Of a stretch of DNA of 64,000 nt, positions 2,086 through 63,980 are shown piece after piece. Source of the DNA: Candidatus Micrarchaeota archaeon (lineage in GTDB: Archaea > Micrarchaeota > Micrarchaeia > Anstonellales > Anstonellaceae); NCBI GenBank assembly GCA_021813025.1, contig JAKAME010000001.1, positions 2,201 through 66,200 of the forward strand. The letters are read 5' to 3'. Positions within the stretch are counted from its first letter, which is position 1, and each line of letters starts with the position of its first letter. The position numbers and the translations under genes are program-made. The notes beneath the pieces were generated by a model that saw only the letters and a program-made list of their open reading frames with translations, was not told where the DNA came from and searched no databases.

Positions 2086-2183
2086 GCACAGAGGATGGCT
2101 GGATTATTTATTAAATGGGAAGCGCCAAATTGTGGACGGAGCTGGCGGCAAGCGCGAATGGACGGACTGAACGGGGGATCGGC

Positions 2184-16025: not shown

Positions 16026-16111
16026 TACGGCCGTCTCCTCGTCAAGCTCCATAGCAAACCAAAGGGGCATAGCACGGCGACCTTTTAATAATCAAATCAC
16101 ATGATTCGGCC

Positions 16112-16660: not shown

Positions 16661-16741
16661 GCCGGATAGATGCGCCATCCACAGGTGTGGTAATAATACA
16701 AACGATATGTTTATATATCGCTTTGGGCAGAATAATAGACG

Positions 16742-17404
16742 GTGAGATTCATGACTTCCCCATGGACGCTGATGCAAAAACCACAGATGCCACCGCGAAA
16801 TCCACAAATGGCAATGGCGCAACGACCGAATGAATTGGTTCTTAGACAAAGTCGAGTTTTAACAAGACAAAATCCATTTTTAACAACCTTGGAAGGGCAC
16901 ATGAAACAAGAGGCAGGCCTGAAATTGGACTTAATACGTCAAAAGCTCTTACGTGGCGAATTTCATGATTACTTAGAAGTGCAAGCAACGACTCTGAGAT
17001 GGATAGAAGATTTAGATATGAACTTTAGAGGGATGGCGGTAGGACACGTAGCCGCCGACATTGCCAACAAATTTGCGCCTGACAGAACACAAATAATTGG
17101 TGACGAACTGAGGGTCATTGTAAAGAGAAACGCCCGCGGCTATACGCTGGATGAGGTTGCAAGGGAGTCTGCAAAACTTGGCAGGCAGCTTAAGCAGATA
17201 AAAATTGAAAAGGGCGCCAGTGTCAAATACGGGCTGTATTATGTTTTAGCCAAAAAGATTGACCAGCAAATGAGAAAGCGCACGAAAGAAAACATCTCCA
17301 GAGCACTAACAGGCATTAAGGAACTCGACAGCCTCATCGAGGATATTGAAAAGAAAATTGACGGCCTGTACATGCTTCCGAAAAGCGAGGGTTTGATTAA
17401 ATAA
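16742..17404 (+). CDS. Hypothetical protein in AT-rich islet
   Basis: ORF with a clear GC drop relative to its flanks. No recognisable family. Followed by a hairpin plus T-tract. Confidence 0.5.
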   Translation: MRFMTSPWTLMQKPQMPPRNPQMAMAQRPNELVLRQSRVLTRQNPFLTTLEGHMKQEAGLKLDLIRQKLLRGEFHDYLEVQATTLRWIEDLDMNFRGMAVGHVAADIANKFAPDRTQIIGDELRVIVKRNARGYTLDEVARESAKLGRQLKQIKIEKGASVKYGLYYVLAKKIDQQMRKRTKENISRALTGIKELDSLIEDIEKKIDGLYMLPKSEGLIK

Positions 17405-17405
17405 C

Positions 17406-17440
17406 GCGCAAAAACAAATGCGCGTATTTTATTTATTGCA
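17406..17440 (+). terminator. Candidate intrinsic terminator (hairpin cgcgca-aaaacaaa-tgcgcg followed by tattttattt)
   Basis: Perfect 6-bp inverted repeat immediately after the stop codon, followed by a T-rich tract. Confidence 0.45.
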
Positions 17441-17497
17441 TAGCGGGAGCCATGAGCGGCCACAGCACCAGAACCGATGATATGGGCAGCACGATTT

Positions 17498-19063
17498 CTA
17501 CTTTGTCACAATGAGCTGCGCATTCTTGCCCAGAAGCAGCACAAGCTCGCCCGGCTGGCCGCCCGGCACGGGATTTGACTTCACCCAATAGTCCACCATC
17601 GCGTCGCGCAAAGAGAGCAAGTCTCCGGGCTTGATGCCGTCCGCGCGCGGGGGCTGCACGTAAAGAGGCAGCTGGTGCTTGCCGTCTGAGAGAAGCAGGC
17701 GGTTGTAGGCCAGCAGCTTCTTGCCGTGCGGCACGGATACCACCATGTTGTCCAGAACTTCGAGCGGCAGGGTGGAGAGTTTCTTCAAGCCCGGCTTGAG
17801 GCCGGAGAGGTTCTCGATTCCCTCCTGGTGCGTGCGCTTGACAGCTATTTCAAAGGCAAGCTCGATGTCGGATTTTGCCTCCTTCATGAGCCTCTCCTTC
17901 TCCTTCTTTATTTCCGAGGCCTTGATGCCGGGCGTGAGCGCAATCGCATAGGCGAGCTTGTAGTAGTAGAGCGCGTGCCTCGGCATCTTCACGCCCTCCT
18001 CGTCCATTGACTGCGGCTCGGCAGGCTCCTCTGCCAGCATGGAAGGGATTGCGGCAGTCGGCGAGGGGGCTTTGGGCTGGAGGTATTCGGGGATGGGGAA
18101 ATTGGTGGCTTCCTCCATGCGGGATTGCATTGAAGGGGAGGAAGAGGAAAGGGACGGCTGGCGGGATGAGCCGGCCTCTGCCTGGCCAGAATAACCCGCG
18201 TGCGCGCCCCTCATTCGCCGCAATTCTTCCGGCGAGCGCAAATGCGCAGGCACGCCCACGTCTGCTTCGGCCTGCTCAAGCATGCTGGAGCGCGCAGCGC
18301 GGATGGCTTCCATGCCCGCCATCGGGTCGCGGGCGGGAATGGGAACCGATGCGGGAACAGCATCAGAGGAGTCGTCATCTCCTGCATCTTCCCCCTCAGC
18401 CTGCATCCGCGCAGCTTCCTCGGCCTGGGCAGCCCTGGCGCTCTCGGCCTGCTGGGCCCTTGCAGTTGCTTTCTCCTCGTCGCTCAGGTGCGCAGTAGCA
18501 ACCTGCTCGAAAGAGGGGCGTGAAGTGGAATGGCCTGCCTCGGCCGGGCGGGAGGCCGGAGTTTGGGAGGGCGCAGCCCCGCCGGGCGCGCCGGGCATCC
18601 ATGAAAACAGCTTCTCGATAGAGGGCAGAAGCCTGTCTCGCGCCGCCTTGTTTTTGGAGAAAAGGCGCTCAAGGGATGGAAGGAGCTTCTGGCGCGCCTC
18701 GGCCATGTCCGCGGGCGGAGGCTTGCCCTCCTGCCTTGCCTCGAAAATCTTCTCAAGGCTCACCAGAGCCTCCCTCTCCTCGCCCTTGAAGCTGTCAAGG
18801 GCTGCGCGCGCCATCTCCTGCACGCCAGGGTCCTTGTCTGCCCCCAATTCGAGCAGGGCGAACACCGCGCGCGGGTCGTCCAGCCCGGCCAGCTCCTGCG
18901 CCGCCCGGCGGCGCACGTCTGGGTTGGAATCATAGGTAAGGGAAACAAGCTTGTCTATACGGGCGCTCTCGTCCTGCGCGGGCGGAGGGGCGGGGGGGAG
19001 GTGGGACTGGCCTGCAGAGGCTGCGGCGCTGCCCTTTGTGCCTTTGCGCTCGCTCATGGCCAT
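17498..19063 (-). CDS. HEAT-repeat (PBS-lyase type) protein with low-complexity A/E/S-rich linker and uncharacterised C-terminal domain
   Basis: NPDVRRRAAQELAGLDDPRAVFALLELGADKDPGVQEMA HEAT-like repeats at the N-terminus. Confidence 0.65.
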   Translation of the reverse strand: MAMSERKGTKGSAAASAGQSHLPPAPPPAQDESARIDKLVSLTYDSNPDVRRRAAQELAGLDDPRAVFALLELGADKDPGVQEMARAALDSFKGEEREALVSLEKIFEARQEGKPPPADMAEARQKLLPSLERLFSKNKAARDRLLPSIEKLFSWMPGAPGGAAPSQTPASRPAEAGHSTSRPSFEQVATAHLSDEEKATARAQQAESARAAQAEEAARMQAEGEDAGDDDSSDAVPASVPIPARDPMAGMEAIRAARSSMLEQAEADVGVPAHLRSPEELRRMRGAHAGYSGQAEAGSSRQPSLSSSSPSMQSRMEEATNFPIPEYLQPKAPSPTAAIPSMLAEEPAEPQSMDEEGVKMPRHALYYYKLAYAIALTPGIKASEIKKEKERLMKEAKSDIELAFEIAVKRTHQEGIENLSGLKPGLKKLSTLPLEVLDNMVVSVPHGKKLLAYNRLLLSDGKHQLPLYVQPPRADGIKPGDLLSLRDAMVDYWVKSNPVPGGQPGELVLLLGKNAQLIVTK

Positions 19064-19566: not shown

Positions 19567-19638
19567 TGGACTCGGAGGGATTTGAACCCTCGACCTTTCC
19601 GTTGCAAACGGAACGCGCTACCGCTGCGCCACGAGCCC
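19567..19638 (-). tRNA. tRNA-Ala (anticodon UGC)
   Basis: Reverse complement folds as a cloverleaf GGGCTCG...anticodon loop TTTGCAA...GGTTCAAATCC, with the G3:U70 alanine identity pair. Confidence 0.9.
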
Positions 19639-47131: not shown

Positions 47132-48202
47132 CTAGATTGGATGGAAGCCAGGCACCCAGAGGCCGGTCTTCTCGTCCAGTCCGTGCATCAGGTTGAAGCA
47201 CTGGATGGCAGGTCCGGCCGAGCCGCGCACCAAATTGTCGATGGCTGACATTACCACTATGCGCGGATGAGTTGCATCCAGCTCAAAGCCGATGTCTGCA
47301 AAGTTCGTGCCCGCGACTGGCTTGGGCTCCGGGTAGCGGTAGAGGGTGCCCTTGTCCTTGACCAGGCGGATGAAGGGGGAATTTGCATAGAAGGAGCGGT
47401 AGGCCTTCCAAACTTCGATGTCGGTGAGAGGCCGGACCACAGGAGCATGAATGGTGGAGAGTATTCCTCTTACCATTTCTACTGCGTGCGGTGAGAATCC
47501 AACCGACACATTGGCTGGATGCCCTGCACCAACCGCAATCTCATTGAGCTCCTGCTCCATCTCAGCCGTGTGCCTATGTCCGGTGGGCTTGTAGGCGCGC
47601 ACCGTGCCCTGCCTCTCTGGGTGATGGGTGGAAATGTCGAAGGCAGCGCCTCCGGCTGAAGAGCCGATTTTTGAGTCGGCGATAATGCGCGAGGCATCGA
47701 TTAGGCCGGCATGCACAAGAGGCGCGGTTGCAAGTATGACTGAGGAGGCCAGACAGCCCACACCAGATACCAGCTGCGCCCCCCTGATTTGCTCACGGTG
47801 CAATTCGGGCAGGCCGTAGACTGCTCTTGGCAGAAGCTCGGGGCAGGGGTGGGGCTGGTAGTACTTTTCATAGGTGCGCGCGTCATGCAGGCGGAAATCG
47901 GCCGAGAGGTCGATTATCTTCACGCCGGTTTCGATGTATTGCTTCACAAAAGGCGCAGACACCTTGTGAGGCAGGCACAGGAAAAGCGTGTCAACATCTG
48001 TGTTGAGCTGCTTGGATGACACGAATTCTGCCTGCGTAAAGCCGCGCAGATTCGGGTTGAGCTTGGTGACTGGGGTGCCGGCAAACCGCTCTGAAGTCAC
48101 TTGCGCGATTTGCATTTCTGGGTGCAGGAGCGCCCAGCGCATAAGCTCGCCGCCCGTGTAGCCGGACGCGCCGATGATGGAGACTGTATAGGCCATGTGC
48201 AT
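47132..48202 (-). CDS. argC: [LysW]-aminoadipyl/glutamyl-phosphate reductase (ArgC/LysY)
   Basis: VSIIGASGYTGGEL N-terminus. Catalytic Cys region GCLASS. Confidence 0.9.
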   Translation of the reverse strand: MHMAYTVSIIGASGYTGGELMRWALLHPEMQIAQVTSERFAGTPVTKLNPNLRGFTQAEFVSSKQLNTDVDTLFLCLPHKVSAPFVKQYIETGVKIIDLSADFRLHDARTYEKYYQPHPCPELLPRAVYGLPELHREQIRGAQLVSGVGCLASSVILATAPLVHAGLIDASRIIADSKIGSSAGGAAFDISTHHPERQGTVRAYKPTGHRHTAEMEQELNEIAVGAGHPANVSVGFSPHAVEMVRGILSTIHAPVVRPLTDIEVWKAYRSFYANSPFIRLVKDKGTLYRYPEPKPVAGTNFADIGFELDATHPRIVVMSAIDNLVRGSAGPAIQCFNLMHGLDEKTGLWVPGFHPI

Positions 48203-49056
48203 TACCTCTTTGCTGCTGAAACGAAATATTCAATCATCCTGCCCGGAATGTCGACGCCGGTTGGCGCGACTGAGTTGCGGAATTCGGTGGTGTGGTTGAC
48301 TTCGTGCACCACGAGCCCGTTCGCCGACTCCATCATGTCAACTCCATAAATTCCTTCGCCGAAAACATTTGCAGCACGAACTGCAAGGTCGCCGAGCTCG
48401 TCGGACACCTCGCACTTGCTGGCCGTGCCGCCTCTTCCCGTATTTGTTATCCACCCAGACTTCTCTGTCGAATTGCGGTAGATGGCGGCAATGCACTCAT
48501 TGCCCACCACAAAGGCGCGGATGTCGCGCCCCGGCTTGTCGATGTGCTCCTGTAGGTAATACACCTTCTGGAACGCATGCCCCATCTCCTCGCGGTTCTC
48601 AAGCTCTGCCTCCAGAGCTTCGCGGCTCTGGATTTTGTGAACCATGCGCGCCCACGAGCCGAACACCGGCTTGGTGACAAGGGGGAAGGAAAGATGCGCG
48701 GCAGCCTGGGTGGCGGATTCGGGCGAGAACGCCCCGTATGTCTTGGGCGTGGGTATTCCGGCCTTGGCCAGCAGGGTGGAGGCAAGAAACTTGTCGCCGC
48801 ACAGCTGGTGCGCCCTGTATGGATTGCACACGAACGCGCCCGCCTGCTCGAACCAGAACGAGGTGTAGAGGGTGCGGGCATAGGAGGAGGAGCGCTGGAG
48901 GATTGCGTCATAGTCTGTGTGCGGTTCGGTGAGCTCAAGCTGCAGCTCGCCATCAGCCAGGCGCTCAAGCTCCAAGCCCCTGGCCTTCGCTGCCTCGATG
49001 AGAAGCTTGTTCTCGGCCGATATGATGGTGTAGAGCAGTGCGGCACGCATAGACAA
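48202..49056 (-). CDS. lysX: Alpha-aminoadipate--LysW ligase LysX (RimK-type ATP-grasp)
   Basis: ATP-grasp fold. Adjacent to lysW. Confidence 0.85.
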   Translation of the reverse strand: MSMRAALLYTIISAENKLLIEAAKARGLELERLADGELQLELTEPHTDYDAILQRSSSYARTLYTSFWFEQAGAFVCNPYRAHQLCGDKFLASTLLAKAGIPTPKTYGAFSPESATQAAAHLSFPLVTKPVFGSWARMVHKIQSREALEAELENREEMGHAFQKVYYLQEHIDKPGRDIRAFVVGNECIAAIYRNSTEKSGWITNTGRGGTASKCEVSDELGDLAVRAANVFGEGIYGVDMMESANGLVVHEVNHTTEFRNSVAPTGVDIPGRMIEYFVSAAKR

Positions 49057-49280: not shown

Positions 49281-50529
49281 TACATAATGTTGTGAATGTA
49301 ACATATCGGCACCAACCAGAACGACCGGAATCCTACCCTCTACAAACCCACATAGGCTAGCTAGGCTTTATCTTAGTTATGAGAGCTTACCGCTTTCGCC
49401 TCTACCCCTCCAAATGGCAGGAGAAGGAGTTGCTTCATCATCTCTTTATAGAGAAAAACCTCTGGAACATGCTTCTGGAGAAAACCAAGAAAAAATATAA
49501 CGAAGAGGGGAAATTCTACTCCAAATCCGAGATTCAACTTCTGGTTAAAGACAGCGGCCTGTACTCCCAATCGGCCCAAGCCATCGCTCATCGCCTCCAC
49601 CATGCCCTCCAGGCAAAAGTTCGGGCCAAGAACAGAGGTCAGAAGTGGGGGTTCCCAAGATTCAAATCCATCGAGCGCATGAAAAGTATCTACTACCCCC
49701 AATCTGGTTTTTCTCTTGGCCAAAAGCTCAAGGTCTCACCATTCGGAGAAATTTCTATCGTTCGGCATCGGATAATCAAAGGCCGTATCAAAACCCTCAC
49801 ACTCAAGAAAGAAGCTTCTGGTAAGTGGCATGCCATTTTCATGGTTGAGGAAGAATCCGTTCCTCAAAAACCCAACAACGGTCCAACTGTTGGATTGGAT
49901 TTGGGCCTCAACCATCTGGCTACTCTTTCTAACGGGAATTTCATTGAAAATCCACGCATTTTCAGCCAGTTTGAGAACGAGCTTGCACGGACCCAACGCC
50001 ATCTGTCCAGAAAGCGCAGAGGAAGCCACAATCGAGAGGAATCTAAGAAGAAAGTGGCTCGAGTCTATGAATCTTTAGCCAACGCCAGAAAAGACTATCT
50101 TCACAAGGCAGCCAACGCCCTTCTTTCTCAATACTCTAAAGTTGCTATGGAGGATTTGAGGATACAGAAGATGGCCAGAGAGGGTCATGGTAAAAACATT
50201 CATGATGCCTCATGGGCCCTGTTCACAAATATGCTCTGCTACAAGGCTGAGAGTGCCGGTTCAGAGATTGTGTTTGTGGACCCAAGGAATACGTCAAAAG
50301 AGTGCAGTCGTTGCCATTCAATTGCCAGCAAAAGCCTGTGGGAGCGAACTCATCAATGCTCCTCTTGCGGTCTGGTGCTTGACCGGGATGTCAATGCTGC
50401 CATCAACATACTCCAACGAGCTACGGCCGGGATGGCCGGAAGTAACGCCTGTGGAGATGGAATAGAGATTCCGTCTTTGAAGCAGGAAGCCGCGCCCAGT
50501 ATGGCGTGGTGATTCACTACATAATGTTG
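49281..50529 (+). mobile_element. IS200/IS605-family (IS1341-type) tnpB-only element, lower GC, flanked by 12-bp direct repeat tacataatgttg
   Basis: Repeat copies at 49281-49292 and 50518-50529. A single TnpB gene inside. Inserted between the lysW promoter and argF. Confidence 0.65.
49379..50512 (+). CDS. tnpB: TnpB (IS605 OrfB family)
   Basis: N-terminus MRAYRFRLYPS. C-terminal zinc finger CSRCHS...CSSCG and DRDVNAAINILQRA (RuvC-III). Confidence 0.85.
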   Translation: MRAYRFRLYPSKWQEKELLHHLFIEKNLWNMLLEKTKKKYNEEGKFYSKSEIQLLVKDSGLYSQSAQAIAHRLHHALQAKVRAKNRGQKWGFPRFKSIERMKSIYYPQSGFSLGQKLKVSPFGEISIVRHRIIKGRIKTLTLKKEASGKWHAIFMVEEESVPQKPNNGPTVGLDLGLNHLATLSNGNFIENPRIFSQFENELARTQRHLSRKRRGSHNREESKKKVARVYESLANARKDYLHKAANALLSQYSKVAMEDLRIQKMAREGHGKNIHDASWALFTNMLCYKAESAGSEIVFVDPRNTSKECSRCHSIASKSLWERTHQCSSCGLVLDRDVNAAINILQRATAGMAGSNACGDGIEIPSLKQEAAPSMAW

Positions 50530-50535
50530 CGATAG

Positions 50536-51447
50536 CTACTTGCGCCCAGCCAGCCAGACCAGCAGCCCCTTCTGGGCATGCAGGCGGTTGTTGGCCTGTT
50601 GGAAGACAATGCTTTGCGCCCCGTCCAGCACCTCGCTTGCCACTTCCTCGCCCCTGTGCGCTGGCAGGCAGTGCATGAAAACAGCTGTTGGTTTGGCATA
50701 AGCCATGAGCTTGGAATTGACTTGGTATGGGGCAAAGAGCTTGAGGCGGGCGGCTGCTTCCTTCTCATCGCCCATCGAAACCCACGTGTCTGTGTAGACG
50801 ATGTCTGAATTGGCGAGACCGGACGCTGCATCAGAAGTAAAAGAAACATTTGTACCGAATGCTTTCGCATTTTTCAAATATTCCGCCTTTGGCTTTGCTT
50901 TCTGCGGCCCCACAAGGGAAACGCCCATACCCATCATTGCACAGCCGAGCATGAGCGAGCGGGCCACGTTGTTGTCGCAGTCGCCGGCATAGGCAAGTTT
51001 GCGGCCCTTCAGCTCGCCAAGCTTCTCCTGTAGTGTAAGCAAATCCGCAAGTATTTGGCACGGATGCTCCTCGTCAGTAAGCCCGTTGATGACAGGGCAT
51101 GGCGAGCCGGAGGCCAGCGCTTCGAGGTCGGCGTGGCTGTTCAGCCTTGCCATGATGAAGTCCGCCATTCCGCCCAGAGCCGCGCCGGTGTCATAATAGG
51201 ATTCGCCGCGTGAGGTTTGCGACGCGCGGGCGTCAAGAAAAATCGCATGCCCGCCAAGCTGGGCCATGGCTGTTTCGAAGGAGACGCGCGTGCGGCTGGA
51301 GTTTTTCTCGAAAAGCATGAGAAGTGTTTTCTTGCCCAGCAGGGGGGGTGCGCGGCCTTTTGCATAGTCTGCCTTGAGCTTGGAGGAAATGGCGAGAATT
51401 TCGCGCAGTTGCGCGGGCGTGATGTCGGTTATTTTGAGAAAATCCAT
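50536..51447 (-). CDS. argF: Ornithine carbamoyltransferase
   Basis: SSRTRVSFETA, HCLP and DxxxSMG motifs. Confidence 0.9.
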   Translation of the reverse strand: MDFLKITDITPAQLREILAISSKLKADYAKGRAPPLLGKKTLLMLFEKNSSRTRVSFETAMAQLGGHAIFLDARASQTSRGESYYDTGAALGGMADFIMARLNSHADLEALASGSPCPVINGLTDEEHPCQILADLLTLQEKLGELKGRKLAYAGDCDNNVARSLMLGCAMMGMGVSLVGPQKAKPKAEYLKNAKAFGTNVSFTSDAASGLANSDIVYTDTWVSMGDEKEAAARLKLFAPYQVNSKLMAYAKPTAVFMHCLPAHRGEEVASEVLDGAQSIVFQQANNRLHAQKGLLVWLAGRK

Positions 51448-57045: not shown

Positions 57046-57411
57046 AAGTTGGAATGAGGCTGGCTTTAATTAAATACTAAATGTTGCAGGTATAACAAAA
57101 TAAGATGAGGAGGAACGGACGGACTGATACCTTTTCGTTAGCCTGACCGACGGGGTTGTTTGGCTGATGACGAGTTTTGGACTAGTGAAACTTCGACACG
57201 CCCCTAAAAGAAAACGAAAGACGCGGAAATCATAGGAAACCACGGGAGAAAACCAGAACTGTTCGATAGTTTAAAACGTTCCTACTGCAATTTCTGTCAG
57301 ACTATGGATATCAAGATAACGCAGATAACCAAAATAGAGTGCAAACAGTGCGGGAAAACGAGATTGATAACAACAAGGATAAAATAACCTCAAGAACGGA
57401 TAAGTGATTGA

Positions 57412-58056
57412 ATGGCAAAAGTAATTGAAAAAAGAGAGGTAATAATCGCAGGAGTAGGTGCAGGTCGCATGATTTTATCCGAGATTGCAGACTGTGCGCA
57501 TGAATTCGGGGGCGGTAGATTACCTGCTGTATTGTATGATACACATATGGGAGGTATCGCGTGCGCCAAATCGCCGACTAAAGGCGTTTTAATCGGCAAA
57601 GAAATCTTTGGAGGGAGCGGTGCGTTTGGAGAAATTAAAAAATGCAGAATTTCCGCCTTAAAAGAACGGAAAAAGATTGGCGATGCAATTGCAGGTTCAA
57701 AAGTTGTAATCGTTGTGACATGTCTTGGAGGCGGCACTGGATCCGGCATTGCGCCGGTTGTGTGCGATATTGCAGGCAAACAAGGCGCATTTGTGATTGC
57801 GGTTGCCACTTATCCTGCGAAGTGTATCCCTAAGACATGGAAAAAATGCAGAGAGATGGCAGAAACAGGGCTGGATGGACTCAAAAAACATGCAGACGTT
57901 TTGATGATAGTGGATAGTGAAAAGATACGCAGGCATATGGAAAAAAATACCGAGTGGCCGGATTTGTGTTTGGTTTGTAATCGTATTGCGGCAAGGATGG
58001 TCTGGGACATATGCAAGGGTAAGGGCTTACAGCAAGTGTGGGATGCAAAGGATTGA
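57412..58056 (+). CDS. Tubulin/FtsZ-superfamily GTPase-domain-only protein (214 aa, lacks the C-terminal T7 domain)
   Basis: T1-like IAGVGAGRMILSEI. Tubulin signature VVTCLGGGTGSGIAPVV (GGGTGSG). FtsZ-like ADVLMIVDSEKI block. Confidence 0.5.
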   Translation: MAKVIEKREVIIAGVGAGRMILSEIADCAHEFGGGRLPAVLYDTHMGGIACAKSPTKGVLIGKEIFGGSGAFGEIKKCRISALKERKKIGDAIAGSKVVIVVTCLGGGTGSGIAPVVCDIAGKQGAFVIAVATYPAKCIPKTWKKCREMAETGLDGLKKHADVLMIVDSEKIRRHMEKNTEWPDLCLVCNRIAARMVWDICKGKGLQQVWDAKD

Positions 58057-58088
58057 CAACTGAGAAGGAAAATATCGAGGACAAGAAA

Positions 58089-58700
58089 ATGAACGACTCT
58101 GACGAAAATTTTTATAAATGCGGCACGCCCATGTCCAAACGGCATAATGAACGATGTAAAGAGTGCAAAACGCGGGTTTTCCAGCTACTATGTGGGCTAT
58201 TCGGAGAAGTAAAACGTGAGCATAATTTGGGGATTAGCAGCGGTTTAGATTCGTTCGAGCATTCCACAAACTATGCTCACTTGAGTAACATCCTCCATAT
58301 GCTTCAGGAATATCGTGGCTACAACAACTTCGTCAGAAGAAGGCGGATGACCAATGTGGATTTTTTTGTTCCCGCCCACGGGCTTATCGTTGAATTCGAT
58401 GAATCCCAACACTTCACTAAACCCCGTCAAATCGCGTTAGATAACTATCCTGCCGACCTCAAACTTGGATTTAATCGGAAACAATGGGTTGAACGATGCG
58501 TGCATCTGCATAAGACGGACAACGACCCGCCCTACCGCGACGAGACACGGGCATGGTATGACACATTGAAGGACTTTGCGCCGTCAATCCTCGATTTGAA
58601 GCCTACCGTTCGTTTATACTCCAAAGATTGTGTTTGGTGCGAATTGGATCTGGGGAATAGCGGAAACATAGCGGAGTTCAAGAGGAGGTTGGGCGTATGA
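58089..58700 (+). CDS. Zinc-ribbon protein with Vsr/DUF559-like (PD-(D/E)xK-related) nuclease-fold motif
   Basis: YKCGTPMSKRHNERCKECK zinc ribbon. VDFFVPAHGLIVEFDESQHF resembles the D...(I/V)E(V/F)DGxxH core of restriction-endonuclease-like proteins. Start ambiguous (58038 or 58089). Confidence 0.4.
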   Translation: MNDSDENFYKCGTPMSKRHNERCKECKTRVFQLLCGLFGEVKREHNLGISSGLDSFEHSTNYAHLSNILHMLQEYRGYNNFVRRRRMTNVDFFVPAHGLIVEFDESQHFTKPRQIALDNYPADLKLGFNRKQWVERCVHLHKTDNDPPYRDETRAWYDTLKDFAPSILDLKPTVRLYSKDCVWCELDLGNSGNIAEFKRRLGV

Positions 58701-59530
58701 AATGCGCAGTGGTTTCATTTATTATGCATGTAGATGGCGGAACTTCAAGCAAGCCGAAACGCGCTGGCAAAGCCAAACGCGGAAATAGGACGCCGAACAA
58801 CGCTGACCTCGTGTTGGAAGTTTTAGAAAAGACCAAAGATTTAGCGATGGTTCTATTCTCAGGCTGGACGCTTGATAATGAAAACGAGTTGAATCGCGTG
58901 ATTGATGGCCTCCACGCGCCTCATCCGACATTCATTTTAGAAGTAGGTAGCGGATACGATACAAACGACAATCCACATTCTCCAGCAGGTTTTTACGTGA
59001 TTCAAGATGGCAAACTCAAACTCAATAAGGTGAAACAGTGGTTTGCTACGAGCGAAGAAGCCAACCGTAATGAAAAAAATCTTATAGAAAACTATCTGAC
59101 TACGCTAGAAAAAGATAGATGTTTTAGTGTCGATGGTAAGCGAGTTCGTCTGATTATCTGTGGTGAGAATAACGTCCTCCGAAACGAACAATCTCATAAT
59201 AACAAAGTTTATTGCCGAGCGGAAGACAAAGAATCGCAGACAAAGCTGGAATCGATACTTAACGACACCGACATCTTCATCAACCCGGCTCACACGCCGA
59301 TGGGCAACTTGGGAAAGATGAAAAAACGCTGGAAGTTCTTGAGTGAAACCAACAGGGTGCTATTGTTCGTAACTAACGAGTGCGCGAAGGCAGGAGTGAA
59401 AAATTTCGAGCCAAACTTATCCAAGCAGTCGCTCAAGTACGCATTTATCAACGGAAAAGAAACTGAATTCTCGAAATTGGCGTCTGGGAAACAATATCAA
59501 ATATCACAGGTTGATATTCCGACAAATTGA
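58697..59530 (+). CDS. Hypothetical protein (277 aa) of the island operon
   Basis: ATGA-coupled to the upstream gene. No family recognised. Confidence 0.45.
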   Translation: MKCAVVSFIMHVDGGTSSKPKRAGKAKRGNRTPNNADLVLEVLEKTKDLAMVLFSGWTLDNENELNRVIDGLHAPHPTFILEVGSGYDTNDNPHSPAGFYVIQDGKLKLNKVKQWFATSEEANRNEKNLIENYLTTLEKDRCFSVDGKRVRLIICGENNVLRNEQSHNNKVYCRAEDKESQTKLESILNDTDIFINPAHTPMGNLGKMKKRWKFLSETNRVLLFVTNECAKAGVKNFEPNLSKQSLKYAFINGKETEFSKLASGKQYQISQVDIPTN

Positions 59531-59650
59531 CCCATAAACGAGAGCAGCCCTAGGGACACCTCCCTCATTTCCGCGTCTTGGGCTGTTTTAGGCGTTTTTC
59601 GCGTAGCTCAGGCAGACGAGTTCTCTCCTAACGGACGGACTGCCATCCCT

Positions 59651-60730
59651 TCATCTCTTATACACGCAAATCACGTCCCCGTCTTGAAGAACGTGGTCCA
59701 ACCCGGCCTTTTGCCCCGGAAATTTGGCGGACGGCCCCCACACCTGCGCGTAGCGGAACAGCTTCTTCAAATCCCGGTGCAGCCGCTCGCACGCATCCCC
59801 GACGTTGGAGCCTGCGCGCATCATCATGGGGGTGGAATCGGCATCCTCATTTCTGCGTTTGGTGTAGATGCGAATGAGCTGCAGTTTCTCCCATATTTTC
59901 TCCTTAAGCTCCTCCACCCCCTGATTTTTCTCTGCGGAAAGCGGCACGAAGCCGTAGGGAATTGCCTTGAGGAACTGCGGCTGGACCAAGTCGATTTTGT
60001 TGAGAAGGGTAATCGAGGGAGTGTATTTGCGCGAGCCTTCCAGCACGTCGATGAATTCATCAACAGTTGCATCCTGGCGAAGCATCACTTCGGCGTTGTG
60101 GATGCCCTGCTCGTGCAGAATAGCGATAATCATGCGCTCGTTCAGGTGCGTGAGCGGCACGGTGGCATGTATGTTGACGCCTCCGCGCAGCTTGGGATGC
60201 ACCAGCAGGTTGGGCCTTGACTTGTCCACGCGTATGCCGATGCCCTCAAGCTCCTCAATCAGCTTGGGCCGATAGAGAGGGTCGAATACGTCGAGCAGGA
60301 GCAGGATGAGGTCTGCGTTTCGCGCCACCGCTAAAACTTCCTTGCCACGCCCGGAGCCCTCTTTCGCGCCTGCAATAATGCCGGGCAGGTCCAGCAGCTG
60401 GATTTTCGCGCCCCGATAATCCAGGGCGCCGGGCACCACGGTCAGGGTGGTGAAGTGGTAGGCCGCAGTCTTGGATTTGGCGCCGGTGAGCGCGTTGAGA
60501 AGGGTGGATTTGCCGGTTGAGGGCAGGCCGATGAACACCACTGTTGCGTCGCCTGACTTCTTGACGTCAAACCCGCCTGTCTGCAATCCTGATTTCTTGG
60601 GGGCGGAGATGGCTTTCTTCAGGTGGGCTATTTTGGACTTGAGGATGCCGATGTGGAATTCGGTGGCTTTGTTTTTCTGGGTGCGGGCCAGCTCGTCCTC
60701 TAGCTCCTTGAGTTTGTCGGCAGAACCCAT
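59651..60730 (-). CDS. DRG/Obg-family GTPase with C-terminal TGS domain
   Basis: G1 GLPSTGKSTLLN, G3 DLPGII, G4 NKID. TGS-like C-terminus. Confidence 0.85.
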   Translation of the reverse strand: MGSADKLKELEDELARTQKNKATEFHIGILKSKIAHLKKAISAPKKSGLQTGGFDVKKSGDATVVFIGLPSTGKSTLLNALTGAKSKTAAYHFTTLTVVPGALDYRGAKIQLLDLPGIIAGAKEGSGRGKEVLAVARNADLILLLLDVFDPLYRPKLIEELEGIGIRVDKSRPNLLVHPKLRGGVNIHATVPLTHLNERMIIAILHEQGIHNAEVMLRQDATVDEFIDVLEGSRKYTPSITLLNKIDLVQPQFLKAIPYGFVPLSAEKNQGVEELKEKIWEKLQLIRIYTKRRNEDADSTPMMMRAGSNVGDACERLHRDLKKLFRYAQVWGPSAKFPGQKAGLDHVLQDGDVICVYKR

Positions 60731-60817: not shown

Positions 60818-61501
60818 TCAGGATTTGGAGGTAGTCACAATATCGTGCACCAGCGCACCGGCCTCCACTAACACCCCATTACTGAGGTCGCGCCAGTTGC
60901 CGACGAAGACCTCCCAGCCGGCACCAGATATGTTGTCATAGCCGGCACTGCGCCCAAGCGAGCCGAATTCGCTCCGGAATGAACGGTAGAGAGCATTTGT
61001 GCCAAAAGGACGCGAAGCCTGGCTTCCAGGCATACCTTCAACTGCGGAAAACCACCCTTTTGTTTGGGGTTGGTTGGCATAGAATTTGAGGAACTGGCGC
61101 CTATCCGCTGTGAATTCCTTGGAGACGAAAAGGCCAAAGTCGACGACGCAGATAGAAGGGTTGATAACCAAGAGGGGGTTCTGGGCCTTCAGCTCGTCTG
61201 GAGTGAGGACTTTCTCTGCATTGGGCAGGTGGAAGTCACCACCATTGCCGCGCACGGTGAGAGTGCCAGTCTTGGTGTTGATGGACTCACCCAAAGGCTT
61301 TTCGGTGTTGACCGAGAAACCCATAAAGAGAGGCATTTTGAGCGCTTTGAGTGCTTCGGGATTCTGCTGGGCGAACCGCTGCACTTCGGCCGGACCGAGC
61401 ATCTTTTCGAAGAATTTTTTCCCAGAGGTGTCGAAGGCAGTGATGCCTTTGATCAAATCGACCCCAGAAGCAACGCGCTGGGTTCGGAAGTTTAAAGCCA
61501 T
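60818..61501 (-). CDS. Hypothetical protein
   Basis: 227-aa ORF with good coding appearance. No family recognised. Confidence 0.5.
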   Translation of the reverse strand: MALNFRTQRVASGVDLIKGITAFDTSGKKFFEKMLGPAEVQRFAQQNPEALKALKMPLFMGFSVNTEKPLGESINTKTGTLTVRGNGGDFHLPNAEKVLTPDELKAQNPLLVINPSICVVDFGLFVSKEFTADRRQFLKFYANQPQTKGWFSAVEGMPGSQASRPFGTNALYRSFRSEFGSLGRSAGYDNISGAGWEVFVGNWRDLSNGVLVEAGALVHDIVTTSKS

Positions 61502-61616: not shown

Positions 61617-63980
61617 CTAGTTTTGGCTCTCTTCGCCAGCCGGTTCTTCGCTCGGGGCGGCTTCCTCCTCTTCTGCTTCCAGAACTTCGTCAGCTTCGAG
61701 AGGAGTTGATTTTGAGGCACGGGCGCGGGGCGCATTGTCTTGGCCGGATGGCGCAGGAACCGGCCGGCGGGCGGATTTTGCAGGAGCTGCCTTTTGCGCC
61801 GAAGCAGATGCCCCCGTTTTCTTTGTTTTTTTCTCCTGTCCGGTTGTTTGCGCAGTGGTTTCGCGCTCTTTCAATTCATCCGCCAGAATCTGGCTGAACT
61901 CGCCCACCAGCAGCTTGTCATAGGCGCCCCAGTCCGGCTCCTGCCCGGAATGCTCTTTCAAAATCCGATTCGCTGCCATGAGGCATTTGAGCACGAAGTC
62001 AAGCTCTATGAGGGCAGGCTCGTCATAATCCACAGAGGCATGGTAAATCAGGTCATAGAGCTTGCCTTTGTAGAATGCCTCCATGACATAGTCTTTCGCA
62101 GGCAGGCCGGTCTCGTCGGCGCGCCTCTGCAATGCGGGCGGGACGAACTTGAGCTTGAGGCGTCTGGCAATTGAGCCCAAATCGGCGTTGTAGAGCTCCT
62201 GCGCGCTTGCTTCAGGCAAATCGCAGAACAGGCATTGCAGGCGCGTGGAGGCAAGGTCCTCGCCGCGGTGCAAATCAAACACCTGCGCATACTGCCGCTT
62301 GTCCAAATCAGTCTCGTATTGGAAGCCCAGCATGCGGTAGACGCGCGACTTGCGGCCAAAGCGCACTTTCTTCAAAAATGAGTAGCGGTCGGTTGAATAC
62401 ATCGAGGCCGCAGGCATGCCGAACACCAATTCCAGGCGGTCCTGGATGTCTTTCAATGACTGGGCGTGAAGGTTGTAAAGCAAAAAGATGCCCGGCTGGG
62501 TGTTGAGCATGTTGATGACTCCCTGAATGGCGGTGCGGGAGCGTATTTCGTTGATAATGACGCAGGCGTCTCCCATGCGCAAAGACGCGTTGGTCATTGA
62601 AACTAGGTCAAGCTCGGAGCTTGTCTGCTGGGTTTCCTCATGCTCTGAGGAAGCCACGCGGATGGCGCCAATGTGGAAGCCGCGCTTGCGGTAGGCGCGG
62701 GTGGGGATTTCCTCTATGTCCTGAATCGGCAGGATGCGCCGATGCAGGCCGATGGCAGAGATTTTGGCTGAAGTAAAGGCCGTTTTGCCCACGCCTTTGA
62801 GGCCCAGCACCGCTTCCGAGCAGCCCAAGCCCACCATGACGTCGTCATAACCTGCGAAGAAGGGGGTGAAGGAGGAGTATTTGAGGTATTCGGCATAGGT
62901 GAAGGGCTGCTCTTTCATCAGCCTTAGCGCAGCCTGCAGTTCGCCGAATGTGGCTGGCGGGCGCTGGAGATGGCAGCGCATTGCAAGCCTTGTGAGCACG
63001 ATGTCGATTACCGGGTTGTCTTTGTCGAATTTGCGCCCGCCCCCTAATGAGATGACGATGTTGCGGAAAGCGCGCTCAAGCATTTCCGGCGAATACTGCC
63101 ACAAGGTGTGGCAGAGGCCGAACTTCTGGTGCTCGACATAGATTGGCGCATTGGGCGCGTCGATATAGACATCGGTGAGATTGTCGCGGTCCATTGCCAG
63201 GTTTTCCAGCGGGGAGCCAAGGCCCACTGTCCACGCAGCAGCTTCGCGGCCCATTGCAAGAGCCTGCTCTGAAGTGATTTGGATGTTCTTGAGCTGGGCC
63301 TGGTCTATGAAATGCTGGCGCAGGGTGCGCATCTTCGAGTCAAAGATTGTGGTGTAATCAACGGTTTCCTTGACAGCCTTGAGCTCGTCTGTTATGGTGT
63401 CCTGAAGCAGGGTGACAAGCGCCGGCGGCAGGCTTTCGATTATGGGATTGCGCAAAGAGTAGAGGTAGGCTTCTGAGCCGGGAGCCTCGTAGATTTCCAC
63501 CTGCACCCCATAGGGCAGCTCGTATTTGCCGCCCTCCAGCAGTTTGGCGCCGGCCGGGATGGTCTTGAGGAAGGTTTGTGAGTATGGCATGGCCTTGAGG
63601 CTGAGGAGCGAGAGGAACACCTGGCGCAAATCCTCCTCTTTTGAGGCAAGGGAATACATGCGGCTCTGCTGGTAGGCCGCGAGGATTCCATTCACCCACC
63701 CGCGGAAGGTGCGCCACCCTTCCACGAACACGGCGCGCTCTGGGGAGGCTTCCTCGTATTCGCGCAGCACTCTGGCCGCCTCCACCGGGCTTTGGAACAT
63801 TGACTCGTAGAAATCCTTGAGCAGCTTCTGGCGGCTTCTGTACTGCTCGTCCTGCTCATGGCCATAGACTTTGGGGTCGAGCATGATTTGCTCCACTTGG
63901 CGTATGATTGCGACATATTCCCAGAAGATGGCCGACTTGTCCTCGTCCAAGTCTATGATGACTTCCTCCTCATAGCGCAT
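61617..63980 (-). CDS. Large secretion-ATPase-superfamily (FlaI/VirB11/GspE-like) protein with atypical Walker A, about 470-aa N-terminal region and acidic/lysine-rich C-terminal tail. 5' end may extend beyond the window
   Basis: Walker-A-like GLKGVGKTAF. GEIR-box analogue ACVIINEIRSR. His-box-like NTQPGIFLLYNLHAQS. No in-frame stop between the annotated Met and the window edge. Confidence 0.5.
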   Translation of the reverse strand: MRYEEEVIIDLDEDKSAIFWEYVAIIRQVEQIMLDPKVYGHEQDEQYRSRQKLLKDFYESMFQSPVEAARVLREYEEASPERAVFVEGWRTFRGWVNGILAAYQQSRMYSLASKEEDLRQVFLSLLSLKAMPYSQTFLKTIPAGAKLLEGGKYELPYGVQVEIYEAPGSEAYLYSLRNPIIESLPPALVTLLQDTITDELKAVKETVDYTTIFDSKMRTLRQHFIDQAQLKNIQITSEQALAMGREAAAWTVGLGSPLENLAMDRDNLTDVYIDAPNAPIYVEHQKFGLCHTLWQYSPEMLERAFRNIVISLGGGRKFDKDNPVIDIVLTRLAMRCHLQRPPATFGELQAALRLMKEQPFTYAEYLKYSSFTPFFAGYDDVMVGLGCSEAVLGLKGVGKTAFTSAKISAIGLHRRILPIQDIEEIPTRAYRKRGFHIGAIRVASSEHEETQQTSSELDLVSMTNASLRMGDACVIINEIRSRTAIQGVINMLNTQPGIFLLYNLHAQSLKDIQDRLELVFGMPAASMYSTDRYSFLKKVRFGRKSRVYRMLGFQYETDLDKRQYAQVFDLHRGEDLASTRLQCLFCDLPEASAQELYNADLGSIARRLKLKFVPPALQRRADETGLPAKDYVMEAFYKGKLYDLIYHASVDYDEPALIELDFVLKCLMAANRILKEHSGQEPDWGAYDKLLVGEFSQILADELKERETTAQTTGQEKKTKKTGASASAQKAAPAKSARRPVPAPSGQDNAPRARASKSTPLEADEVLEAEEEEAAPSEEPAGEESQN

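Follow-up and report, generated by a model that had tools for sequence, protein, structure and literature searches.

An inserted mosaic cassette in a Micrarchaeota archaeon carries a half-size FtsZ, a Vsr-like predicted nuclease and a nitrilase-fold protein

The window (the whole 64-kb stretch of DNA that was analysed) contains a small cassette of three genes located between two host loci, the gene for a DRG/Obg-family GTPase and the homocitrate synthase (HCS) gene of the lysine operon. The features of this cassette and its flanks are collected in Table 1. The host is assigned to the Micrarchaeota (DPANN) on the basis of the DRG gene, which is 85–88% identical to those of Micrarchaeota MAGs.

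Table 1. Features of the cassette and its flanking host loci (positions in the window)
Feature	Position	Strand	Remarks
Host HCS (lysine operon) promoter region	57046–57104	-	Conserved with the empty site, outside the insert
Left direct repeat AACGGACGGACTG, 13 bp	57114–57126	+	Exact match; near the left breakpoint
Imperfect sub-terminal inverted repeat, left arm TCGTTAGCCTGACCGACG	57135–57152	+	
Small CxxC...CxxC zinc-ribbon gene, relic or variant	57208–57387	+	Open frame from 57208
Perfect 13-bp inverted repeat, left arm AAGACGCGGAAAT	57218–57230	+	Just 5' of the decayed zinc-ribbon start
Gene 1, mini-FtsZ, 214 aa	57412–58056	+	N-terminal GTP-binding domain and helix H7
Gene 2, Vsr/DUF559-like PD-(D/E)xK predicted nuclease, 203 aa	58089–58700	+	
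Gene 3, divergent carbon-nitrogen hydrolase (nitrilase superfamily) fold, 277 aa	58697–59530	+	
Perfect 13-bp inverted repeat, right arm	59567–59579	-	37 nt past the gene 3 stop
Imperfect sub-terminal inverted repeat, right arm TCGTCTGCCTGAGCTACG	59602–59619	-	
Right direct repeat, 13 bp	59630–59642	+	Exact match to the left copy
Host DRG/Obg-family GTPase gene	59651–60730	-	Stop codon is the right-hand insert limit

The same gene order (DRG, then HCS-AsnC-aconitase) is found in a related Micrarchaeota genome (L024), in which the gap between the DRG and HCS genes is 59 nt, compared to 2605 nt in the window. Consequently, the ~2.5-kb lower-GC segment is foreign DNA inserted between the DRG gene and the lysine-operon promoter, as an earlier note on this DNA had proposed. 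The sharp drop in GC content described in that note is also present, as the DNA between the direct repeats has a GC content of 0.449, compared to 0.566 for the HCS gene, 0.574 for the DRG gene and 0.582 for the window. This segment has the lowest GC content anywhere in the 64-kb window and falls 13 points under the genome. Homology to the L024 empty site ends at approximately 57104, with the left direct repeat lying 9–10 nt further in, and a TTTAATTAAA box in the HCS promoter region is kept in L024 (L024 and window aligned by eye). On the other side, the DRG stop codon (59651–59653) is located 8 nt from the right direct repeat. The three genes are missing from the DRG/HCS locus in the relatives examined, while the island is 100% identical in all recovered contigs of the host species, none of which contains an empty site.

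The ends of the insert have features of a mobile element. The 13-bp direct repeat is exact at both positions, as originally noted, and is not a common motif in the window, which has only one further copy, with 1 mismatch, at 2157 (shuffle expectation 0.03 matches). Comparison with L024 places the breakpoints 8–10 nt from the perfect repeats. Breakpoint windows of 45 and 50 nt, set independently from the related genome, both contain the 13-mer; the longest word common to these windows in 5000 shuffles was 10, and none gave 13. The repeat may represent a target-site duplication or, alternatively, an att-like core. IS4-family target duplications are 10–13 bp, and an IS4/IS5-type DDE_Tnp_1 gene adjoins a related gene cluster in locus L005. 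The empty site that had been sought as a check is present in L024, but without the 13-mer. As this is the only empty site available and a single-copy target was not found, target duplication stays a candidate only.

The direct repeats had been interpreted as an insertion signature rather than IS ends, a distinction that is not supported, as inverted repeats sit just inside the direct repeats and the ends look IS/MITE-like. The arms of an imperfect inverted repeat, separated from the direct repeats by 8 and 10 nt on their inner side, agree at 14 of 18 positions (score 16, versus 7.7 ± 1.8 on near-symmetric diagonals; reached by 0.18% of shuffles). An inner inverted repeat is perfect over 13 bp, and when the two 130-nt ends were shuffled, 0.35% of the shuffles reached its score. 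The extreme tips (the outermost 8–10 nt inside the direct repeats) do not match as inverted repeats. Similar to IS-derived non-autonomous elements (MITE-like or IS4-family), the insert has flanking 13-bp repeats as well as inverted repeats near its ends, and it lacks a transposase. In contrast to these elements, it contains 2.1 kb of cargo, is present in a single copy, has tips that are not inverted repeats and has a target 13-mer that is missing from the sole empty site. Searches of the window, and of 1.58 Mb comprising the window and fetched loci, gave no second copy of the ends. Consistent with the earlier reading, no integrase, transposase or recombinase was identified within the island, and the sole transposon gene in the 64-kb window is a TnpB at 49379–50512. 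The lack of a recombinase suggests that the segment was probably mobilised in trans, and the insertion event would have left both the 13-bp direct repeat and the inverted-repeat ends.

The three genes are all on the same strand and genes 2 and 3 overlap through an ATGA at 58697–58700, as first described. The overlap reported between genes 1 and 2 (58038–58056) requires a GTG start and is not retained, as public gene calls (203 aa) and the family alignment, in which conservation begins at His19 of the 203-aa form, favour the ATG at 58089. This start leaves a 32-nt spacer between genes 1 and 2 that contains an AGGA Shine-Dalgarno-like site. A Shine-Dalgarno-like site is located ahead of every gene start in the cassette and the dN/dS values are 0.2–0.3, indicating that the genes are real.

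The 285-nt AT-rich leader preceding gene 1, previously described as non-coding, contains a decayed small zinc-ribbon gene. The ancestral ATG of this gene has become ATA at 57232–57234, and the first ATG in the frame, at 57304, gives only 27 aa before the stop at 57385–57387. The DNA at 57250–57388 is 82% identical to a 51-aa zinc-ribbon ORF (L015:7802–7957; dN/dS ~0.14) that lies directly 5' of a gene 3 homologue, an arrangement also found in one more contig. The zinc-ribbon ORF and gene 3 homologue are contiguous in L015 and are separated by genes 1 and 2 in the window, demonstrating that the cassette operon is a mosaic of two modules.

The identification of gene 1 as a truncated tubulin/FtsZ-fold GTPase is supported by profile searches and alignments. 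The protein matches Pfam Tubulin (PF00091) at 6.5e-18 and 66 bits (cut-off 33), while its score against TIGR00065 ftsZ (92 bits) is under the cut-off of 295. It aligns to residues 76–195 only of M. jannaschii FtsZ, with PDB alignments ending at 195, and stops ~40 residues past the T6 region. Neither a T7 synergy loop nor a C-terminal domain (PF12327) was identified. The T1 (GVGAGR, residues 14–19) and T4 (GGGTGSG, residues 106–112) loops are invariant in the family and the T3 loop is GSGAFG. The Rossmann-like GTPase domain, the T1/T3/T4 loops and helix H7 are shared with canonical FtsZ. In contrast to canonical FtsZ, gene 1 ends after H7, and contains YPAKCIPK in place of FxFEG at T5 and VDSEK in place of PN(D/E)K at T6. 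Homologues of gene 1 are 212–216 aa and cover 97–98% of the protein, and dN/dS values of 0.23–0.31 show that it evolves under purifying selection. The family is rare, forming one 50%-identity cluster among 1.84 billion (1.84e9) representatives. By sequence, true archaeal FtsZ is the nearest relative of gene 1 (34–36% identity).

The T7 loop and the C-terminal (GTPase-activating) domain allow FtsZ to form head-to-tail filaments and to hydrolyse GTP. Oliva, Cordell and Lowe reportedly showed in 2004 that the isolated FtsZ N-domain binds nucleotide, with hydrolysis requiring the C-domain of the neighbouring subunit. Based on its GTP pocket and "top" face, gene 1 is predicted to bind GTP and may dock on an FtsZ/tubulin-type subunit, while the absence of the T7 loop and the C-terminal "bottom" face predicts that it can neither extend a filament nor trigger hydrolysis. 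Gene 1 is therefore likely to function as a GTP-dependent sensor, switch or filament cap and not as a cytoskeletal polymer.

Comparison with other tubulin-family proteins also sets gene 1 apart. TubZRC partition systems likewise place a tubulin-fold GTPase on acquired DNA beside a small DNA-related protein. However, TubZ comprises both tubulin domains and assembles into filaments, while gene 1 has only the N-domain and is predicted to be incapable of the canonical filament mechanism; the TubR partner is a winged-helix protein, whereas the neighbour of gene 1 has a nuclease fold; and no iterated repeats comparable to the TubZRC centromere array were seen in the chromosomal cassette. The initial exclusion of tubZRC partition is thus upheld. 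Divergent tubulin-superfamily proteins without a division role include FtsZl1 and FtsZl2 (Makarova and Koonin 2010, PMC2875224) and the tubulins reported in GTPase-centred conflict systems (Kaur et al. 2020, PMC7159879). Like gene 1, these proteins occur in multi-gene neighbourhoods, and FtsZl1 likewise lacks a recognisable T6-H7/C-domain. In contrast to the 214-aa gene 1 protein, FtsZl1 has ~1000 aa with a coiled coil and FtsZl2 has an extra C-terminal region of ~300 aa; genes for vWA, OmpA, HSP70 or TRAFAC GTPase proteins accompany these proteins and the conflict-system tubulins but are absent here, and gene 1 is much nearer to true FtsZ than FtsZl1 and FtsZl2 are. Elsewhere, relatives of gene 1 lie in variable islands alongside genes for HAD and metallo-beta-lactamase proteins. 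The L001 locus includes an MmeI-like RM system, SLFN/AlbA_2, a Csa3/CARF-like HTH protein, ClpP and a tubulin-ankyrin protein. Fusions of FtsZ to TIR and to HD-CE domains also exist.

The Vsr-like nuclease fold proposed for gene 2 is well founded, as the protein has a restriction-endonuclease-like alpha/beta core. The motif D91...E102-F-D104-E105-S-Q107-H108 includes six residues (D91, E102, D104, E105, Q107 and H108), assigned to the acidic/His metal site on the core strands, that are invariant in 62 sequences, and the family pattern vDFfv...ivEFDEsQH matches the DUF559 motif. The suggested zinc ribbon is more aptly termed an invariant H19/C23/C26/C184 cluster; the first Cys pair identified by the earlier reader is not conserved. 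Gene 2 is sub-threshold to both DUF559 and DUF7255 (17.6 bits for the latter, below the cut-off of 27), with its relative P0020 reaching 29.1 bits against DUF7255. In contrast to the Vsr/DUF559/I-Bth0305I branch and DUF7255, gene 2 has ~100 additional residues, among them a strongly conserved DNDPPYRDEQRAWYDTLRDF helix and the H/C cluster; its family also differs from that branch in its obligatory association, by linkage or fusion, with a second domain that resembles an enzyme. Members of this family occur at more than 570 metagenome loci, in bacteria and archaea.

Gene 3, originally listed as unknown, carries a carbon-nitrogen (CN) hydrolase fold, a four-layer alpha-beta-beta-alpha sandwich as found in the nitrilase superfamily. 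No sequence-level match was found in Pfam (including PF00795), NCBIfam or PDB. C155 and E157 (RLIICGENN), which correspond to the catalytic Cys on the nucleophile elbow and the Glu at +2, are invariant; hhalign pairs C155 with the Cys found in the canonical CN-hydrolase partners, at a probability of only 9.9%. K113 is less strictly conserved, as 13 of 17 family members have it and the remainder carry R, Q, S or I. The first catalytic Glu of the nitrilase E-K-E-C tetrad is missing, as LFSGW replaces FPE (Ser/Pro-Gly at this position), and the invariant E82 might substitute for it. Immunity by the RT-nitrilase systems DRT1/UG1 and UG5 depends on the nitrilase domain and on its Cys (PMC9226505; PMC13436386), and UG5 contains a Lys-Cys-x-Glu triad (Lys833-Cys876-Glu878; PMC13436386). 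The Lys...Cys-x-Glu arrangement of DRT1/UG1 and UG5-large/DRT11 is shared by gene 3 (K113, C155, E157), for which a similar position of a CN-hydrolase fold inside a conflict system is proposed. In contrast to the RT-nitrilase domains, gene 3 has neither a PF00795 match nor the first catalytic Glu, and its partner is a predicted nuclease instead of a reverse transcriptase.

The cassette could in principle serve an ordinary host function, with gene 1 as a division FtsZ paralogue and genes 2 and 3 as repair and metabolic enzymes that are neighbours by chance. The proximity of gene 1 to true archaeal FtsZ is consistent with this explanation, as is the presence of Vsr proteins and nitrilases as housekeeping families in many organisms. 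However, the absence of the genes from the same locus in relatives, the GC content of the island, the extreme rarity and truncation of the gene 1 family, and the scores of genes 2 and 3, which fall below every curated family threshold, make it extremely unlikely.

Genes 2 and 3 recur together as a pair, as shown by linkage and fusion. They adjoin or overlap in L012, L013, L182 and 12 of 80 metagenome loci, and a canonical PF00795 CN_hydrolase adjoins the nuclease in L107 and is fused to it in L135. The second gene beside the constant nuclease varies between loci, and at least two other partner families have no detectable relation to CN-hydrolases. The pair also occurs without gene 1, and gene 1 is found elsewhere beside other genes. 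All three genes were found together only in contigs of this one species, so the idea of a conserved triad does not stand and the juxtaposition of gene 1 with genes 2 and 3 may be functionally meaningless.

The behaviour of the pair bears on two further explanations. The module could be a selfish, addiction-type (toxin-antitoxin-like) unit with no role in virus defence, wherein a gene 2 toxin is checked by gene 3 (or gene 1) and loss is lethal. A constant nuclease with a variable adjoining partner would fit such a unit, as would a compact overlapping module found as an isolated insert among housekeeping genes of unrelated genomes, and an island that is invariant among the recovered contigs of the species with no empty site. 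The frequent fusion of nuclease and partner into one polypeptide is unusual for such pairs, however, and the enzyme active site retained by the partner (invariant C155/E157) is a poor fit to a simple inhibitor, leaving this explanation rather unlikely. It could also be proposed, purely by inference, that the CN-hydrolase strips or converts a base modification of invader DNA (amide- or nitrile-bearing bases of the carbamoylmethyl, amido or cyano-deazaguanine types) before the Vsr-like nuclease nicks it. This form of modification-dependent restriction is improbable given the nuclease partners that are, as far as detectable, unrelated to CN-hydrolases.

The genomic context is suggestive of conflict at some loci. 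A defence-island-like context is clear in L001, L013 (integrase, N6_N4 methylase, type I HsdR/HsdS and AIPR) and L015, and partial in L012 (NACHT-HEAT and NucS). The neighbours of 24 family members include four N6_N4_Mtase, two N6_Mtase/Eco57I, BrxC, DruA and TdeIII, although this survey mixes defence and ordinary genes and its counts have no background control set. The window itself and the closest gene 2+3 pair (L182–L184) are located among housekeeping genes and not in defence islands. Some fused members have an N-terminal domain with a weak resemblance to that of type IV restriction enzymes. At the default E-value cut-off of 0.001, no model of the catalogued defence systems in PADLOC-DB 2.0 matched any of the three proteins, in line with the earlier statement that this is not a known defence cassette; the only match was gene 2 to mREase_II (E 0.0072), and relatives and partner proteins gave only ankyrin and a weak N-terminal mREase_IV match.

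IMG/VR viral contigs yielded no match to any of the three genes and PLSDB plasmids none to gene 2, limiting the support for mobility to one event. These results also bear on whether the genes serve the mobility or maintenance of the element itself, with gene 2 as a homing or TnsA-like end-cleaving enzyme and gene 1 as a TubZ-like segregation GTPase remaining from a plasmid or virus. It is improbable that this proposal accounts for the cassette: there is no partner transposase, no second copy of the ends was found in the window and fetched loci, gene 1 lacks the C-terminal domain required for TubZ/FtsZ filaments, and the conserved link to an amidase fold is left unexplained.

The explanation we prefer, while holding it with somewhat less than even confidence, is that the locus is a mosaic, horizontally acquired cassette comprising a nuclease and CN-hydrolase conflict module with a half-FtsZ add-on. 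Genes 2 and 3 would be the core, representing in split form a widespread unit of nuclease and CN-hydrolase that pairs a Vsr/DUF559-type metal-dependent endonuclease with a Cys-nucleophile amidase/nitrilase-fold enzyme. The two would act as the effector pair of a conflict system (defence or selfish addiction-type), with the gene 2 nuclease predicted to attack DNA and the gene 3 CN-hydrolase predicted to supply a second activity, C-N bond cleavage on a base, nucleotide or protein. The genomic context points to a putative role in defence. Gene 1 would be an add-on drawn from another kind of variable island, and any functional link between it and genes 2 and 3 is putative. It is very unlikely, but conceivable, that the half-FtsZ serves as guard or decoy towards filaments of the tubulin family: its GTP-bearing face would dock where a polymer of the FtsZ/tubulin type, from host or virus, exposes its end, and this GTP-dependent docking would switch on the nuclease and CN-hydrolase effectors.

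Several aspects of this locus are of wider significance. The analysis exposes a large, unstudied family in which a Vsr-like nuclease always has a second domain, either adjoining or fused, that can be exchanged and is often a CN-hydrolase. The nuclease-nitrilase architecture is simpler than that of the RT-nitrilase systems and would offer an independent route to the function of nitrilase domains. Little is known, to our knowledge, about mobile elements and immunity in DPANN archaea, and a clean, recent cassette insertion with transposon-like ends is now documented in one of them. Isolated FtsZ N-domains have already been made artificially by biochemists, but we know of no description of a stand-alone FtsZ N-domain as a gene family; gene 1 is a natural, selected example. 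As it should bind GTP without polymerising canonically, the half-FtsZ is both a ready-made tool and a puzzle for studies of capping and GTP sensing. If the guard or decoy proposal is correct, the cassette would be a DPANN immune module that monitors the cytoskeleton, and would form part of wider, undescribed archaeal islands with N-domain-only tubulins, alone or fused to ankyrin repeats.

A perfect 13-bp direct repeat, AACGGACGGACTG, is present at 57114-57126 and 59630-59642, both copies being exact as the earlier note had claimed. The drop in GC content that it described between the copies is equally real (0.449 between the repeats vs 0.582 for the whole window and 0.566 and 0.574 in the two flanking genes), and this interval is the lowest-GC kilobase range of the window. 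The 13-mer has one other copy in the 64-kb window, with 1 mismatch, where 0.03 matches are expected from shuffles. This near-copy (AATGGACGGACTG, window 2157-2169) is intergenic, lies about 30 nt upstream of an ATG and is probably due to chance. The DRG-family GTPase beside the island is 85-88% identical to proteins from Candidatus Micrarchaeota MAGs, indicating that the host is a DPANN archaeon; the same contig is also present in NCBI assembly GCA_027332465.1.

The boundaries of the island were set independently by comparison with L024 (Micrarchaeota WY3.bin72), in which the DRG protein and homocitrate synthase (HCS) are 85.5% and 81% identical to those of the window. The gene order DRG, HCS, AsnC-type regulator, aconitase is common to both, and the distance from the DRG stop to the HCS start is 59 nt in L024 vs 2605 nt in the window. 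Homology extends through the HCS promoter (TTTAATTAAA box) to about 57104 and restarts at the DRG stop codon at 59651, placing the 13-mers 8-10 nt inside the breakpoints; in shuffles of the breakpoint windows, the longest shared word was 10 and none was longer. The search for an empty site was answered in part: L024 lacks the island, but it also lacks the 13-mer, so a single-copy 13-mer target was not seen. Within the same species no empty site was found, an exact look-up of the HCS protein returning 6-8 contigs that all carry the island with 100% identity. An exact search of the JGI metagenomes with the reconstructed empty site likewise gave no match; a junction with a single 13-mer would read DRG stop, agggatgg, CAGTCCGTCCGTT, cctcctcatc, HCS promoter. 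The segment is very probably an acquired insertion. Different genes follow DRG in two other related loci, L022 (a pair of unknown genes, of which one has a GNAT domain, then LysK/W/X) and L023, so the 3' side of DRG is a variable spot in the lineage. Low-complexity poly-C/poly-T sequence at the end of L023 is probably an assembly artefact.

The ends of the island carry inverted repeats. An imperfect repeat of 18 bp (57135-57152 / 59602-59619, 14/18 matching) lies 8 and 10 nt inside the direct repeats and scores 16 vs 7.7 +/- 1.8 for shuffles when only near-symmetric diagonals are considered, a score reached by 0.18% of shuffles. A perfect 13-bp inverted repeat (57218-57230 / 59567-59579) has a score reached by 0.35% of shuffles. 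The element end sequence is TCGTYWGCCTGASCKACG, and the extreme tips of the island are unpaired. The earlier note viewed the direct repeats as an insertion signature rather than IS ends, with no integrase, transposase or TnpB; the absence of a recombinase from the island stands, but inverted-repeat ends are present. The combination of direct repeats, inverted-repeat ends and lack of a recombinase fits a non-autonomous, transposon-like insertion. No IS family was assigned, as the tips are unpaired, neither the window nor a 1.58-Mb set of window and fetched loci contains a second copy of the island ends, and the window's single transposon gene, an unrelated TnpB, lies 7 kb from the island. Around other copies of the gene 2+3 pair (L012, L013, L182), the search for flanking repeats yielded only low-complexity AT-rich matches. 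IMG/VR, scanned with profiles of all three proteins for a viral origin, and PLSDB, searched with gene 2 for a plasmid origin, gave no match.

Several other features of the window were recorded. The TnpB-only element (49379-50512, + strand; 377 aa, OrfB_IS605 + Cas12f1-like TNB + HTH) lies inside the lysine/arginine biosynthesis cluster, where local GC falls to 0.49, and its neighbours are an OTCase-like gene (50536-51447) and a second LysX-type ATP-grasp gene with LysY (47132-49056). A second, milder low-GC stretch (16097-19063; 0.52 vs 0.58-0.62), located between a polysaccharide-export (MurJ/MatE-like) gene and tRNA-Ala (19567-19638), contains ORFs without Pfam match and a 520-aa HEAT-repeat protein. 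Upstream of DRG are a 227-aa protein with no family match (60818-61501, - strand) and a FlaI/VirB11/TadA-like secretion ATPase of 787 aa, whose long C-terminus is acidic and of low complexity (61617-63980, - strand); the ATPase-DRG arrangement is kept in Micrarchaeota relatives at 57-85% identity.

Three co-directional ORFs occupy the interval between the repeats. The ATGA overlap reported for genes 2 and 3 (58697-58700) is real, while the overlap proposed for genes 1 and 2 requires a GTG start at 58038; public gene calls (203 aa) and the family alignment point instead to ATG 58089, with an AGGA site 9 nt ahead of it. The leader, described as non-coding, contains a recognisable small zinc-ribbon gene: 57250-57388 is 82% identical to the 51-aa zinc-ribbon gene of L015, a contig with a gene 3 homologue, the ATG having become ATA in the window. 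In the leader and trailer, ARAGORN found no tRNA, despite the tRNA-like-looking GTAGCTCAG in the trailer, Rfam matches (E up to 5) were limited to snoRNA-type ones attributable to chance, and promoter and terminator scans with bacterial-type models did no better than shuffles.

Coordinates and extents of compared features
Feature	Locus	Positions	Description
Gene 1 (mini-FtsZ)	Window	57412-58056	214 aa
Genes downstream of DRG	L022	7204-8839	Unknown 175-aa ORF and 330-aa GNAT-domain protein, then LysK/LysW/LysX; no homocitrate synthase
Gene downstream of DRG	L023	9078-9477	Zinc-ribbon protein
Slot gene, ~180-200 aa	L001	10694-11302
Slot gene, ~180-200 aa	L005	2976-3515
Slot gene, ~180-200 aa	L015	8869-9462
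Tubulin-ankyrin fusion	L001	7054-8706	550 aa, N-domain-only tubulin + ankyrin repeats; same island type
Tubulin-like protein	L015	2192-2791	199 aa, stand-alone, N-domain only; same island type
HFX_2341_N/Csa3-like HTH regulator	L012	6744-7340	One family
HFX_2341_N/Csa3-like HTH regulator	L001	5499-6110	One family
HFX_2341_N/Csa3-like HTH regulator	L015	1506-2138	One family
~90-aa N-terminal domain	L134, L135, L142; P0081, P0086, P0088 etc.		Precedes the nuclease; in L134, L135 and L142, N-termini of fused gene 2 relatives

Gene 1 matches Pfam Tubulin at 6.5e-18 and reaches one third of the cut-off of the FtsZ equivalog. Residues 49-172 align to residues 76-195 of M. jannaschii FtsZ, and solved FtsZ structures are matched in the N-terminal GTPase domain only. 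The protein ends about 40 residues past the aligned region, after the helix corresponding to H7; it possesses the T1 (GVGAGR), T3 (GSGAFG) and T4 (GGGTGSG) loops and lacks the T7 loop and the C-terminal domain. Two other loci encode homologues (212 and 216 aa) that align end to end at 70-73% identity, and dN/dS is 0.23-0.31, which together indicate that gene 1 is not a gene fragment. The family comprises four sequences among 5.8 billion clusters; in a set of 1.84 billion representatives it amounts to one cluster at 50% identity, the next matches being ordinary or tandem FtsZ, and short (180-230 aa) matches in that search were rejected as relatives, being truncated fragments of canonical FtsZ. 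A neighbour-joining tree built from 158 domains places the family on a long branch by itself, at a distance of at least 0.72 from everything, and no kinship with TIR-FtsZ, HD-CE-FtsZ or tubulin-ankyrin proteins is claimed. Among the best matches of the gene 1 profile are P0153 (465 aa) and P0165 (619 aa), full-length FtsZ proteins (N- and C-domains) with an N-terminal TIR fusion and an N-terminal HD-CE domain, respectively. Oliva, Cordell and Lowe reportedly found in 2004 that the isolated FtsZ N-domain folds and binds nucleotide, and that it depends for hydrolysis on the T7 loop contributed by the following subunit. By this biochemistry, gene 1 is predicted to bind GTP and should be incapable of extending a canonical filament.

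Gene 1 is not part of the gene 2+3 unit. The triad proposed in the earlier note was found complete only in this species, and the clusters that hold the two relatives of gene 1 consist of HAD, HAD, mini-FtsZ, a hypervariable ~200-aa gene and a metallo-beta-lactamase (MBL). One of these, L001, adjoins an MmeI-like RM enzyme, SLFN/AlbA_2 proteins, ClpP, a tubulin-ankyrin fusion and a Csa3/CARF-like regulator. In L015, the mini-FtsZ slot holds a 156-aa gene, the 51-aa zinc-ribbon gene and a gene 3 homologue (75% identity to that of the window); there gene 3 directly adjoins the zinc-ribbon gene, from which genes 1 and 2 separate it in the window, so the window operon is a recombinant of modules circulating among such islands. 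The ~200-aa genes that follow the gene 1 homologues in L001 and L005 were rejected as gene 2 homologues and do not resemble one another. Across L001, L005 and L015, the slot gene shows no detectable similarity and no Pfam match; its flanks are a mini-FtsZ or gene 3 homologue upstream and a 70-89% identical metallo-beta-lactamase downstream. Judged by these sequences, the slot looks like a hypervariable or cassette-swapped position between conserved neighbours. The 199-aa protein of L015 shares 36% identity with the N-terminus of the L001 fusion and about 33% with gene 1, and both it and the fusion adjoin a divergently transcribed Csa3/CARF-like HTH regulator. This regulator, 93% identical between L001 and L015, heads their mini-tubulin/HAD/MBL islands, and its L012 relative (31-32% identity to both) lies directly upstream of a gene 2+3 pair, which hints at shared regulation of the two modules.

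With an E-value limit of 0.01, 612 proteins belong to the gene 2 family, which is present in both bacteria and archaea and at no fewer than 577 JGI metagenome loci. Across 62 relatives the motif D91...E102-F-D-E-S-Q-H108 does not vary, nor do H19, C23, C26 and C184. Many members carry a domain of about 90 aa ahead of the nuclease (motif G..YPPKY.IS.ANKYANG; recorded as PF26345), which weakly matches the N-terminus of the PADLOC model for type IV methyl-directed restriction enzymes (E 0.0076) and has no match among PDB sequences. In gene 3, C155 and E157 (RLIICGENN) are invariant, K113 is present in 13/17 members and the Glu that opens the canonical tetrad is absent. The resulting Lys...Cys-x-Glu arrangement is the one described for UG5, a defence protein, in its nitrilase domain (PMC13436386). 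Genes 2 and 3 adjoin or overlap each other in L012, L013, the loci of the closest gene 2 relative (L182-L184) and 12 of the 80 best metagenome loci. Elsewhere the downstream partner belongs to a cluster of seven canonical CN-hydrolases (PF00795; confirmed by Pfam in L107), and in L135 this domain is fused to the nuclease. This fusion provides direct evidence that the nuclease and CN-hydrolase work together, and by gene linkage genes 2 and 3 form a genuine pair. At least two unrelated families also serve as adjacent or fused partners; hhalign gave no support for these as hidden CN-hydrolases.

No PADLOC model fits the element, in agreement with the view that it matches no catalogued defence cassette, and it is not TubZRC, also as proposed, nor FtsZl1/2 or an RT-nitrilase system. 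Literature searches found no description of a selected, stand-alone N-domain-only FtsZ or of the architecture of a Vsr-like nuclease with a CN-hydrolase (or other partner), and nothing on DUF7255 or linking nitrilases with restriction-fold gene neighbourhoods.

The cassette may be a conflict-type module (defence or selfish addiction element) with the gene 2+3 pair as effector, a tentative reading that we place slightly short of an even chance. It draws on the RM, BREX, Druantia, NACHT, AIPR and integrase genes near family members (in a neighbour survey with no control set), the compactness and sporadic distribution of the module, the constancy of the nuclease beside a variable partner, and the weak resemblance of the N-terminal domain of some fused members to type IV restriction enzymes. 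It also draws on the precedent of RT-nitrilase immunity, in which the nitrilase domains are catalytically required (PMC9226505, PMC13436386). Some gene 2+3 contexts are plain housekeeping. That the cassette is specifically an addiction/TA-like module is unlikely, and the remaining rival readings are less likely still. Within a conflict-type module, gene 1 would serve as a sensor, switch or cap that depends on GTP. Proteins of the tubulin family have been noted in such systems (PMC7159879), and FtsZ also occurs fused to a TIR or an HD-CE domain. Each fold is known already, and the element would belong to a known kind, nuclease-centred conflict cassettes on acquired DNA, with gene 1 as an unusually interesting accessory.
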